Below, piece after piece: positions 34,876 through 56,616 of a DNA stretch of 64,000 bases. Numbering within the stretch: position 1 is the stretch's first letter; every line of letters starts with the position of its first letter. The stretch is from positions 1-64,000 of IMG/VR virus record IMGVR_UViG_3300047157_000073. One strand, 5' to 3'. The position numbers and the translations under genes are program-made. Source of the stretch: a virus. The notes below the pieces were generated by a model. The model was not told where the DNA came from. It saw only the letters and a program-made list of their open reading frames with translations, and made no database searches.

Positions 34876-36198
34876 ATGTTTCAAACAGAAAATCTACAAG
34901 AAAAGTGGTCGCCAGTCCTTGCACATCCCGATTTGCCAAAGATTGAGGATTCGTATAAAAGGGCAGTAACTACTGTAATTCTTGAAAACCAAGAAAAAGC
35001 TATCAAAGAAGATAGAAGTTTCTTAAAAGAAGCAGCTCCAACAAACAGCACTGGTGCTGATGTTGAGAACTGGGACCCAATTTTAATATCGTTAGTTAGA
35101 CGTTCAATGCCTAACTTAATTGCATATGATATCTGCGGTGTACAACCAATGACAGGTCCAACTGGCTTAATCTTTGCTATGAGAGCAAGATTTGCATCTA
35201 TGGACGGGGGCGAGGCTCTCGGAGATGAAGCAGATTCTGGTTTCTCTAATGATGACGCAGCTGGTAACCTAACTTCATCTGCAATGACAGGTTCAAACCC
35301 TGCAACTCTAAACGATAGCCCAAGTGCTGGTACATACTTGTCACCAACAGGTATGACATTGGCTCAAGGTGAAGCTTTAGGTGATACAAACACTAATGCT
35401 TTCGCTGAAATGGCTTTCAGTATAGAAAAAACAACAGTAACTGCTGTAACTCGTGCGTTAAAAGCTGAGTATACAATGGAACTTGCGCAAGACTTAAAAG
35501 CAATTCATGGTCTAGATGCAGAAACAGAACTAGCAAATATCTTGTCTGGTGAAATTCTTGCTGAGATAAACCGTGAAGTAGTTAGAAGTATTTATATTTC
35601 GGCTGTTGCTGGTGCTCAAGTAAACACAACAACTGCTGGAATCTTTGACTTAGACACAGATTCAAATGGTCGTTGGTCTGTTGAGAAATTCAAAGGTTTA
35701 ATGTTCGCTCTGGAAAGAGATGCTAACGCTATCGGACAACAAACTCGTAGAGGAAAAGGTAACATAATCATCTGTTCTGCTGATGTAGCTTCGGCTCTTC
35801 AAATGGCTGGAGTATTAGATTATACACCTGCTCTAAACAACAACTTAAATGTTGATGACACATCTGCTACATTCGCTGGTGTTATGAACGGTAGATTTAA
35901 AGTGTATGTTGACCCATATGCTGCTAATGTCGCTGCTTCACAATACTATGTTGTAGGATATAAAGGTACTTCACCTTACGATGCTGGTGTCTTCTACTGT
36001 CCATATGTACCACTACAAATGGTTCGTGCGGTAGGTGAAAACACTTTCCAACCAAAAATTGGATTTAAAACTCGTTATGGTATAGCATCTAACCCATTCC
36101 ACACAGGAGTGATAGCTGCTGGTACTGCAGAATCAACTGCGATTACTGCAAATACTAACAAGTACTACAGACGCGTAAAAGTAACAAACTTAATGTAA
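34876..36198 (+). CDS. gp23: major capsid protein
   Basis: LQEKWSPVL; GVQPMTGPTGLIFAMR; RALKAEYTMELAQDLKAIHGLDAE; FYCPYVPL; FQPKIGFKTRYG. Confidence 0.97.
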   Translation: MFQTENLQEKWSPVLAHPDLPKIEDSYKRAVTTVILENQEKAIKEDRSFLKEAAPTNSTGADVENWDPILISLVRRSMPNLIAYDICGVQPMTGPTGLIFAMRARFASMDGGEALGDEADSGFSNDDAAGNLTSSAMTGSNPATLNDSPSAGTYLSPTGMTLAQGEALGDTNTNAFAEMAFSIEKTTVTAVTRALKAEYTMELAQDLKAIHGLDAETELANILSGEILAEINREVVRSIYISAVAGAQVNTTTAGIFDLDTDSNGRWSVEKFKGLMFALERDANAIGQQTRRGKGNIIICSADVASALQMAGVLDYTPALNNNLNVDDTSATFAGVMNGRFKVYVDPYAANVAASQYYVVGYKGTSPYDAGVFYCPYVPLQMVRAVGENTFQPKIGFKTRYGIASNPFHTGVIAAGTAESTAITANTNKYYRRVKVTNLM

Positions 36199-36223
36199 GA
36201 TTGTTTCTTTCAACAAATGAATT

Positions 36224-36244
36224 GGGGGCTTCGGCCCCCTTTTT
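36224..36244 (+). terminator. Rho-independent terminator with cUUCGg tetraloop
   Basis: gggggc-ttcg-gccccc followed by a T run; classic T4 gp23 terminator form. Confidence 0.9.
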
Positions 36245-36276
36245 ATTTCCCCACCATAAAATAAATGGACAAACCC

Positions 36277-36306
36277 TTGACAAAAGATGTTTTAGTATGT
36301 TAGTCT
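36277..36306 (+). promoter_or_regulatory. sigma70-type early promoter upstream of the alkB-like gene
   Basis: TTGACA-aaagatgt.. 18-nt spacer ending TGt, then TAGTCT; shares the TTGACAAAA..TGT pattern with other promoters in the window. Confidence 0.55.
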
Positions 36307-36406
36307 AGCATCATGAAGTTATATTCTATAAGGAATTATTAGTATATTAACAAATACTAATCTAGACAAATAATGGACAAAAGTTAAATACTAGGTTTTT
36401 TTTCTT

Positions 36407-36414
36407 TATAAATA
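36407..36414 (+). promoter_or_regulatory. late promoter TATAAATA upstream of the alkB leader
   Basis: Exact consensus about 10 nt before the structured leader. Confidence 0.65.
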
Positions 36415-36423
36415 TAATCAGAT

Positions 36424-36556
36424 ATGTGTTGGAATAGACATCCCTCACTTTCATTCCAAATTGAAAGTGTTCCTTATGTCACATGACTAACACATGGATA
36501 AGTCATTCACAAGGCTGTGAGTGATATAACTATTTCGTGGGAGGAAATACGAAATG
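36424..36556 (+). ncRNA. putative structured 5' leader (cis-regulatory RNA)
   Basis: Nested complementary arms atgtgttgg/ctaacacat, gacat/atgtc and cactttca/tgaaagtg; hairpin tcattcaca/tgtgagtga; atttcgt/acgaaat enclosing the SD. Confidence 0.5.
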
Positions 36557-37784
36557 GGAAATATTTTATTAAACCTTAGATACCTATTAGCACCTGTGTT
36601 AATCATAGTTGCTGGTGCAGGTGTCTTAATTGGTGGCATAATGGCATGGCTAGGAGTAGTTTTACTATTCGTAGGTTTACTTGTCGATATTGCTACTAAA
36701 TTCGAAACATCAGGCGTAGGATATGATGAAAATGGAGATAGTTTAGGTTGGGCAAGTTTCCAAAACTTAACTATGTACTTCATGTTACCAATCTTTGTAC
36801 TGTTTCAACTAGTCATGGCGTGGAGAGTATCTACATACATGTCACTAGGTGGAATGGAAGGCGAAGTCGTAATGTCAATCATACCTGGTCTATTAGTCAT
36901 GCACGAAGGCATAACAGGTCTTAACTTAATCGGTGCAACATTATCATCTGGTATCTTTATTGGAATCGGAATCATCTATGGTCATGAGTTATCTCATACT
37001 AAAGGATTTGGATTCGTAATATCAAGAACTATGATGGCGTTATCTGGTTCAGCACATTTCTGTTACGCTCATGTATACAACCATCATCTAGAACTTGCAA
37101 GTGAAGATGACCCTGCTACTGCTCCTAGAGGGCGTACAATATATGGTCACTATCCACTATCATATCTAGGTCAGTCTAAATTCTTATTCAATATGGAAAA
37201 AGAAAGACTAGCTCGTATGGGTGTATCACTTTATCTCTTGGCAAAATCGTTGGATAAGAGGATATCTAATGGCAGTGCCAACAGTTGCATTATTCTTTGC
37301 AGCTGGTGGTTGGATAGGAATGGCAGTACTAGCAACAATTTGGGGAATCTCAAACTTTGAGCTAGAAGCACTTAACTATCTAGAACACTACGGATTAATT
37401 CGTGTGAAAGACCAACCAATTGATTACAGACATAATTGGGATAATTCAACAGCTTTTACTGCATGGTTCTTTATTGAAATCGGCAGACAAGCAGACCACC
37501 ATGACAGAGGTGAAACTCATTTCTGGGAATTGGAAAATGTTGGTTGCCCAAATACAGGTTGGGGATACTTTGTAGTATTCTTTATCGCTCTCGTACCGCC
37601 AATCTGGCATTGGTACATGCGTAAAAGACTAGCTGCTTGGGATACACATTTTGCAACAGATGAAGAACAAGCAATTGCTAGAAGAATCAACAAAGAAGTT
37701 GGTTATGAAGGCACACCATTTGTTGGAGATGTATTACAAGACGCTGGTAATGTAGACTTAGGTCTTCGTTCAGCTAGAAAGTAA
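36554..37784 (+). CDS. alkB: AlkB/XylM-family membrane di-iron monooxygenase (one extra base near 37229; about 409 aa when joined)
   Basis: Multiple TM helices; His boxes HELSH, AHVYNHH, NYLEHYG, RQADHH; DPATAPRG; P..GY...ALVPP.W...M..RL..WD. Confidence 0.85.
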
Positions 37785-37807: not shown

Positions 37808-37836
37808 GGGGTGTGATGAACACCCCTTTTCTTTTT
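37808..37836 (+). terminator. Rho-independent terminator after alkB
   Basis: ggggtgt-gatga-acacccc followed by ttttcttttt. Confidence 0.85.
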
Positions 37837-56215: not shown

Positions 56216-56616
56216 TATACAATGGAAGCAGGAGCAGATGTTTGAAGTTCTTTTAAAAGAACCAGATGACTTCCTAAAGATTAGAGAAACTTTATCTCGC
56301 ATAGGAGTTGCTTCTAGAAAAGAAAGGAAACTATATCAGTCTTGCCATATACTTCATAAACAAGGTAAGTATTACATAGTACACTTTAAAGAATTATTTG
56401 CACTTGATGGTAAGGATACAAACTCTATCAGAAAATGATATTGCTAGAAGAAATACAATAGTTAAACTTCTAAGTGATTGGGGTTTAGTTGCAATGAAAG
56501 GTACACCAGAACCGATTGCACCATTAAGTCAAATTAAAATTATTTCATTCAAAGAAAAAGATGAGTGGATGTTAGAAACTAAATATAACATAGGAAAAAA
56601 GAAAGAGGTAGAGTAG
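56205..56616 (+). CDS. regA: translational repressor (frameshift near 56423)
   Basis: PDDFLKIRETLSRIGVAS; LYQSCHILHKQGKYYIVHFKELF; RRNTI..LL.DWGL; KYNIG. Confidence 0.93.

Follow-up and report, generated by a model that had tools for sequence, protein, structure and literature searches.

Why should a phage leave 147 nucleotides (nt) between a late promoter and the start codon that follows it? The question is raised by one locus in a 64,000-nt stretch of viral DNA (positions 1 to 64,000 of IMG/VR record IMGVR_UViG_3300047157_000073; hereafter the window), where an alkB-like membrane di-iron monooxygenase gene starts with an ATG at 36554. The source record is a 123.7-kb uncultured virus, estimated by the collection to be 71% complete, and derives from a T4-type myovirus. 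The T4-type late promoter box TATAAATA occurs 17 times in the window, 14 times on the + strand, and by reading of their positions most boxes stand 13–74 nt ahead of an open reading frame (ORF) start. The exception is the box at 36407–36414, which lies 147 nt ahead of the ATG at 36554, and the gap is filled by a folded leader. An original prediction, made by a model from the letters of the sequence, had described this leader as a switch-like cis-regulatory RNA of no familiar family. Here we find that the leader element is, close to certainly, a functional RNA structure, and we propose, at a probability of roughly 0.5, that 36420–36557 is the 5′ leader of a late alkB-like mRNA that controls its own translation in cis by docking a UUCCUU strand on the loop displaying the Shine-Dalgarno (SD) sequence.

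The leader folds into a rod and a start-site hairpin

The minimum free energy (MFE) fold of 36420–36560 reaches −46.7 kcal/mol, compared with −29.3 ± 3.6 kcal/mol for 200 dinucleotide shuffles (z −4.87), none of which was as low, and it returns all the stems that the original prediction had placed. The first paired base lies 9 nt past TATAAATA. Three helices, P1, P2 and P3, form a rod (Table 1), and between P2 and P3 lies an all-pyrimidine 4 × 6 internal loop in which CCCU faces UUCCUU and which contains all the unpaired bases conserved in the rod. The SD core, GGAGGAA, is held in the loop GGAGGAAA of the start-site hairpin, where GAGGAA (36541–36546) is complementary to UUCCUU. Within the nested ensemble the SD is mostly open, with a probability of 0.91 of being unpaired, whereas the AUG, at 0.09, is mostly paired; the overall mean is 0.45. 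The local free energy of the start-site hairpin averages −7.9 kcal/mol at 37 °C and −13.2 kcal/mol at 15 °C.

Relatives share the architecture and every helix covaries

Relatives were collected by an IMG/VR scan with the N-terminal half of the protein as the query. Among the best 80 of 205 relatives, 57 were 82–100% identical, and together with the window they provided 56 leaders with a promoter box, 40 of them distinct. Two further IMG/VR scans with other queries gave the same contigs, the close clade there amounting to about 57 contigs, and a metagenome scan contributed 44 more phage-type copies, bringing the number of distinct leaders to 53. These leaders can be sorted into about six sequence types with nearly no helix sequence in common, and at least eight unrelated P1 sequences occur among them. 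When the leaders were folded individually, the same architecture was obtained for 40/40 distinct IMG/VR leaders and for 52/53 after the metagenome contigs had been added. The common order is P1, P2, a 4-nt YCCY strand, P3, a 6-nt UUYCUU strand, an optional hairpin and the SD-in-loop hairpin. The 5′ loop strand reads CCCU, UCCC or CCCC, and the sequence of the P3 loop differs between leader types. The optional middle hairpin belongs to the window type and one other, and is missing in four shorter types (e.g. L007, L019, L025 and L056). The promoter box, TATAAATA or CTAAATA, ends 7–10 nt ahead of P1 in 53/53 leaders and at exactly 8 nt in 43 of them. At the other end, all 40 distinct leaders display the SD in a hairpin loop and hold the AUG in the 3′ strand of the start hairpin, the AUG starting 4–7 nt past the closing of the SD loop.

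Covariation among the upstream regions of homologues was found in every helix. In a structure-blind MAFFT alignment, 96.1% of the rod cells are paired, compared with 69.1% in column shuffles (0/500 as high) and 29–50% with slid partners, and compensatory changes on both sides occur at 20/22 pairs. On this rod alignment P1 is 95.3% paired, with 8/9 pairs changed on both sides. P2 is paired in 100% of cells, in 40/40 sequences and at all five pairs, of which 4/5 are compensatory (e.g. A-U in 20 leaders and G-C in 20). P3 is 94.2% paired on the rod alignment and 90.8% on the full-leader alignment, and all of its eight pairs are compensatory. The full-leader alignment gives 94.1% pairing for the start-site hairpin, with 4/7 pairs compensatory, and 17/26 compensatory pairs in all. 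The + strand folds better than the − strand in 50/52 leaders (−35.4 versus −27.1 kcal/mol), and G-U pairs make up 192 of the 1990 in the MFE folds, about a tenth; therefore the structure belongs to the transcript.

The expectation that no recognised RNA family would be met was also borne out. No Rfam 15 family reached its gathering score anywhere in the 64-kb window. With E values of up to 10 allowed on 36150–36700, eight chance-level matches of 8–20 bits appeared (thresholds 34–95), none of them on the + strand inside the leader, and 11 related loci gave one unrelated weak match. With helices that all covary, a linkage to one gene clade and no Rfam match, the structured RNA leader that had been predicted is well established. 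A switch built on a competing helix was not supported. The helix proposed for this purpose, ATGACT (36483–36488) with AGTCAT (36501–36506), is present in the window but not conserved among relatives: of the 20 distinct AGUCAU-bearing leaders, 7 contain AUGACU and 13 do not, and 33/53 leaders have neither word. This helix therefore looks like a chance match. The conserved helices are mutually compatible, and the proposed SD contact would be a tertiary docking, not an alternative secondary structure. A leader peptide was considered and rejected as well, since the 20-codon ATG frame at 36425–36487 stops after 4 codons in the L001 type and after 1 in L012 and is not preceded by an SD.

UUCCUU is a candidate anti-SD strand

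Across the 40 leaders, 99.6% of the UUCCUU/GAGGAA cells are complementary; one of the six pairs covaries and four are invariant. UUCCUU is invariant save for a C-to-U change at its third base, which always occurs together with a G-to-A change in the SD. The variable pair is thus C-G in 32 leaders and U-A in 8, with none mixed, and among 71 leader-plus-gene haplotypes it is C-G in 54 and U-A in 17, again with no mixed state. Two variants of the middle hairpin, which is located between UUCCUU and the SD, are each found with both contact states, and this hints at exchange between the sites with the coupling retained. The original prediction had allowed both pyrimidine segments to pair with the SD; UUCCUU has gained this one covarying pair, whereas CCCU is left without an established partner. 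A triple helix with CCCU parallel to the GGGA of the SD found no support, since CCCU is unchanged where the SD begins AGGAGG, and we retain it only as part of the sensor reading considered in the Discussion. For a pairing of CCC with the GGG of AUGGGA, the lone ATGGCA variant (L354), a single sequence, shows no compensation.

We propose that UUCCUU is a built-in anti-SD, kept open by the P1-P2-P3 rod, and that it docks on the SD loop to form a 6-bp long-range pseudoknot. Docking and the buried AUG would together throttle or gate 30S entry on each rod-bearing transcript. Repression is the expected sign because pairing of the SD competes with 16S rRNA. Structure in an initiation region hinders ribosome entry, and the start-site hairpin is stable, so entry should be hindered in any case. 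Analogy with the T4 rule predicts a late transcript start at about 36420, and the rod would probably also shield the message from 5′-end-dependent decay, because P1 begins 2–3 nt from this predicted 5′ end. Relief might be brought about by temperature or by a protein, or there might be none, leaving a fixed throttle for a membrane enzyme under a strong late promoter.

Sequences from RNA libraries cover the region. Six RNA runs contain 44–64% of the words of the stretch, and RNA-library contigs of three studies lie on the leader and the gene, one of which bridges the leader and the start (X18 record 25, 36389–36592); such contigs may contain DNA and show no ends. Runs X17 and X18 have no cover upstream of ~36397 or downstream of ~37745, which counts as no evidence.

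Several points weigh against docking as the function of this leader. The contact is supported by one covarying pair, i.e. by one or two events: the U-A state needs two changes on the gene tree, or perhaps one, and the SD covariation may be a single double change that was later inherited. Any UUCCUU matches a strong SD, so complementarity is weak evidence by itself, and leaders with a GGAGGAU SD carry no compensating change, one pair being simply lost. The conserved CCCU strand lacks an established partner. It is odd that a late promoter should be kept exactly ahead of a purely repressive element, and the effect could have the opposite sign. The paired percentages of the alignments are raised by the choice of helix columns from MFE folds of the same sequences and inflated also by the relatedness of the sequences, biases of which the slid controls and the unrelated helix sequences are free. 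Our proposal rests on sequence and predicted folds, and contigs from RNA libraries may include DNA. Position 36389 is where the contigs of RNA runs X15 and X18, and also those of DNA run X1, begin; the border 36388/36389 is therefore a break in the assemblies and does not mark a 5′ end.

Table 1. Features of the leader and the alkB-like gene (window coordinates)
Feature	Coordinates	Strand	Basis and remarks
T4-type late promoter box TATAAATA	36407–36414	+	motif scan; box ends 7–10 nt before the first paired base in 53 distinct relatives
P1, 5′ strand	36423–36432	+	pairs with 36487–36496; MFE fold, covariation
P2, 5′ strand GACAU	36437–36441	+	pairs with 36476–36480
Internal loop, 5′ strand CCCU	36442–36445	+	mean probability of being unpaired 0.99
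P3 hairpin	36446–36469	+	36446–36453 with 36462–36469; loop 36454–36461
Internal loop, 3′ strand UUCCUU, proposed anti-SD	36470–36475	+	mean probability of being unpaired 0.96
P2 3′ strand (36476–36480), 6-nt bulge, P1 3′ strand (36487–36496)	36476–36496	+	
Optional middle hairpin	36502–36525	+	36502–36511 with 36516–36525
Start-site hairpin	36530–36557	+	36530–36539 with 36548–36557; loop GGAGGAAA 36540–36547; ATG 36554–36556 in 3′ strand
alkB-like membrane di-iron monooxygenase gene	36554–37784	+	Pfam FA_desaturase on both halves

Other explanations of the conserved rod

A conserved internal loop between freely varying helices is the usual look of a protein site, and the rod could be an operator that offers its pyrimidine loop to a translational repressor or activator; host ribosomal protein S1, a cold-shock protein or a phage factor like Com on Mu mom would be candidates. 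CCCU has had no RNA partner so far, and the phage encodes a RegA-type translational repressor (56238–56595). We nevertheless regard an operator as unlikely: a protein site alone would not predict the coupled C-to-U and G-to-A changes, and no candidate protein co-occurs in the 3-kb flanks viewed, which is not a systematic test. The T4 RegA sites, according to the available part of PMC3014915, are A/U-rich, unstructured and overlapping the AUG, not pyrimidine loops in a rod. The anatomy is fitted equally well by an RNA thermosensor, whose A-U-rich start hairpin and weak 6-bp docking would melt within ocean temperatures so that translation tracks temperature. Besides the calculated weakening of the start hairpin between 15 and 37 °C, the 6-mer contact is calculated to go from −7.2 to −4.5 kcal/mol over the same range, the U-A variant of the contact is weaker (−5.0 kcal/mol at 15 °C), and the desaturase/hydroxylase membrane family presumably has lipids or alkanes as substrates, compounds that change their physical state with temperature. 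Every RNA helix weakens with temperature, however, which makes these figures unspecific; the SD sits in a loop here, whereas known thermometers have it in a stem facing U-rich or bulged strands; the Rfam thermometer models gave no match; and no link of variants to habitat temperature has emerged, although none was looked for. A thermosensor is therefore held to be distinctly unlikely, and we expect just as little of a ligand-sensing riboswitch, in which the pyrimidine loop and the purine SD loop would form a pocket that a small molecule stabilises, switching translation; the base-triple pseudoknots of preQ1-II and SAM-II/V offer a comparison for such a pocket. A riboswitch would suit a conserved structured leader that is bound to one metabolic gene, has conserved unpaired bases between covarying helices and a plausible SD/pyrimidine contact, and fits no known Rfam family. 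But the roughly ten conserved unpaired bases are all pyrimidines and are largely explained by complementarity to the SD, leaving few for a pocket, and no alternative secondary structure is available as an expression platform. The leader is moreover tied to a single gene clade, the cellular orthologues of which (83–92% identity) have another leader, and an AlkB-like enzyme suggests no obvious ligand.

Two further explanations concern the transcript rather than the contact. The initiation regions of T4 e, soc, 49 and I-TevI, as the available part of PMC3014915 describes them, are occluded on long transcripts and open on internally started ones. A mirrored form of this transcript-length gate would have the rod only on late-promoter or read-through transcripts, early transcripts from an internal promoter being freely translated. 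Exactly the two leader types that stand away from gp23, the major capsid protein gene, hold the consensus TTGACA-17-TATAAT/TACAAT inside the RNA structure, so placed that the P3 loop contains the −35 box and the spacer contains UUCCUU, the −10 box coming after P2′. In the window, however, the + strand of 36420–36553 was scanned without yielding a sigma-70-like site, and the corresponding positions are TTGAAA-17-TGACTA. Every transcript of the window phage thus carries the rod, and a gate, which would explain only part of the family, appears very improbable to us. The rod might also be a mere 5′-terminal stabiliser against RNase E-type decay without a role in translation, since P1 starts 7–10 nt past the promoter box in 53/53 leaders, 2–3 nt from the predicted 5′ end, like protective 5′ stem-loops; a stabiliser needs neither an invariant internal loop nor a coupling to the SD. 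The strand asymmetry and the 192 G-U pairs make conservation at the DNA level unlikely, and chance is excluded by the shuffle z score, the descriptor count given below and the covariation, so that there is hardly any room for this group of explanations. The docking of UUCCUU on the SD loop is the mechanism that we hold to be most likely.

The leader accompanies one clade of phage genes

A descriptor consisting of P2, YCCY, P3, UUYCUU and P2′ has one site in the 123.7-kb record, where 0.04 would be expected, and the flanks of the other loci contain only the site ahead of the alkB-like gene. The covariance model R1 has its sole match, of 79.6 bits, at 36423–36495 in 421,816 bases comprising the window, 23 loci of a phage clade with 54–58% identity and 58 cellular loci. 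Each of four phage records has exactly one R1 match, and a 119.9-kb record from the distant alkB clade has none. R1 also has none in 37 genomes of the family of the closest cellular genes, where only 127 of 477–1194 candidates per genome were scored. A blastn search with 36200–36600 returned no match in 50,697 phage records.

The cassette of leader and gene lies downstream of gp23 in 32/50 loci and elsewhere in 18/50 (L007, L008, L011–L018, L025, L027, L042 and L047–L051), and the leader accompanies the gene in both settings. The L007 cassette is placed after a helicase-like ORF and a 403-aa ORF. The second phage alkB-like clade (L058–L080; 54–58% identity, 354–394 aa) has unrelated leaders, mostly consisting of TATAAATA, a hairpin and then a small hairpin adjoining AGGAGG, and some of its members have no intergenic leader.

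The closest cellular genes are 83–92% identical and occur at 19 loci in marine gammaproteobacterial genome bins, five of which were checked and measure 0.9–1.1 Mb. The orthologous loci are L082–L098, L109 and L139 (leader at ~1385–1506 in each), together with 36 metagenome loci among L314–L393. Their leader, of ~80–125 nt, is conserved and consists of a sigma-70 promoter, a GGGAA/UUCCC 5′ hairpin, a UARGGAR purine run and a variable branched stem. The base of this variable stem covaries, and the leader ends in an SD-in-loop hairpin that is near-invariant and whose 3′ strand contains the AUG. The cellular leaders gave no Rfam match, and RNAalifold found a poor consensus for the 5′ hairpin, a part that varies in length. 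Phage and cellular leaders thus share an orthologous gene, a hairpin that displays the SD in its loop and pairs the AUG in its stem, and a UUCCC element, but in the cellular leader UUCCC is paired to GGGAA, and R1 has no match to the cellular leaders. The start-site design is thus common to both, and the 5′ domain appears, as far as these sequences tell, to be the phages' own.

Comparison with known leaders

In this leader, as in the fourU and ROSE thermometers, a U/C-rich complement of the SD is combined with A-U-rich start-site helices whose predicted stability depends strongly on temperature. In fourU, the SD lies in a stem facing a UUUU run, and ROSE has a conserved bulged-G motif, whereas here the SD is in a loop in 40/40 leaders, UUCCUU lies 31–68 nt upstream of GGAG, and neither type is matched in Rfam. 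With preQ1-II and SAM-II/SAM-V the leader would share a pyrimidine strand that pairs with a purine SD by a pseudoknot in a 5′ leader. It differs from them in having no Rfam match, in carrying the anti-SD in the internal loop of a long rod and not in an H-type pseudoknot, in lacking conserved pocket bases beyond the pairing strands, and in its gene context. The C/U-rich loops of Staphylococcus aureus RNAIII are likewise unpaired UCCC/UUCC complements of SD sequences held open by helices, but RNAs of the RNAIII type act in trans, whereas here the strand is in cis and its variable base covaries with its own SD. The promoter-early stem-loop (PeSL) of T4-type phages, reportedly described by Arbiol et al. 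in 2010, is said to combine a strong sigma-70-like promoter with a terminating stem-loop. No U run follows the rod here, and P3 and the start hairpin are only weakly terminator-like, with three G-C pairs each.

The T4 gene e type provides a further comparison. For T4 genes e, soc, 49 and I-TevI, the available part of PMC3014915 describes long early transcripts that are silent and late promoters inside the structure. Our leader is likewise found in a T4-type phage with the SD and/or the AUG in leader structure, and it sequesters the start codon, the AUG lying in a strand of the start hairpin in 40/40 leaders with a probability of being unpaired of 0.09. The resemblance extends to an internal early promoter, with promoter choice deciding occlusion, in the C and D leader types only. 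A second internal promoter is absent from the window (36420–36553, + strand) and is indicated, from motifs alone, in the C and D types of other phages. The leader differs from the gene e type in that the late promoter stands ahead of the whole structure, that the window type has no internal promoter, and that a distal anti-SD in an internal loop and a loop-displayed SD take the place of one simple hairpin. T4 RegB, again according to the available part of PMC3014915, cuts GGAG before an A-rich run. No member of the RegB family turned up in the record, which is 71% complete, but the control genomes yielded none either, and the negative is uninformative.

The alkB-like gene and its surroundings

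The protein of a relative with an intact gene matches the alkane 1-monooxygenase structures 8sbb (E 7e-29) and 8f6t (E 6e-26), and the alkB-like protein has no NCBIfam or PHROG family match. Among cultured phages it has two matches only, both at 34% (50,697 phage records). In the window the gene is read in two frames, 36554–37360 and 37221–37784, the cause being one extra base at 37229. This base is missing from every covering contig in four public runs, and the 17 close-clade relatives checked have intact ORFs of 408–409 aa. The extra base probably reflects a mistake in assembly or a private variant, and neither a pseudogene nor a programmed shift. The homologue of the RegA-type translational repressor (56238–56595) is also read in two overlapping frames (model positions 1–61 and 49–122), and because it too is split, indel errors in the record are likely.

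In the window, gp23 directly precedes the cassette (Pfam Gp23, E 1e-144); at 75% identity, its nearest cultured relatives are those of Pelagibacter phage Mosig and Methylophilales phage Melnitz. The cassette is flanked by G+C-rich, terminator-like hairpins with T runs at 36224–36239 and 37808–37826, and a shared AATTGGGG stands before both. Between the gp23 terminator and the late promoter, TDGACAAA occurs four times at 36266–36381, as two pairs with 11-nt spacing (36266/36277 and 36363/36374), so that 4 of the window's 19 copies lie within 116 nt. This cluster may be an operator for a DNA-binding regulator adjoining sigma-70-like sites at 36347–36374. The leaders of a cellular paralogue group (L099–L114) are filled with GGACAAA/AGACAA boxes that are partly palindromic and resemble TDGACAAA.

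Discussion

We know of almost nothing on how phages control the metabolic genes that they have captured. The ocean is reported to be rich in viral alkB genes, and 275 alkB-encoding viruses are given in the available text of a preprint (10.64898/2025.12.08.692962), contigs of which may overlap with the relatives used here. In that text the words promoter, riboswitch and untranslated are absent and leaders are unmentioned. Searches of the literature on alkB with pelagiphage, auxiliary metabolic genes or riboswitch, supplements being outside their reach, turned up no account of this leader. The leader takes its place among known leaders that govern access to the ribosome-binding site, and it matches no catalogued RNA family.

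A wider role for the element is doubtful but can be formulated. The leader might represent a phage-specific class of sensor RNA, in which the pyrimidine 'receptor' of the rod captures its own SD loop and the docking responds to a signal, so as to time or tune an enzyme gene derived from a gammaproteobacterial host, the host leader having been replaced by one driven from a late promoter. The signal might be temperature, a metabolite, a late phage protein, or Mg or pH acting through protonated C triples. Aquatic T4-type phages may use this design generally: stems that display an anti-SD strand, at times with an early promoter enclosed.

What the locus provides is an RNA of ~135 nt, backed by covariation, which always accompanies one captured metabolic gene and is unlike the donor-like cellular leader. 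Its small size suits it to direct probing, compensatory mutagenesis and reporter tests. Should the docking prove true, an internal-loop anti-SD acting on a loop-displayed SD would be a new architecture for hiding a ribosome-binding site, and a new phage motif for the RNA-family databases.

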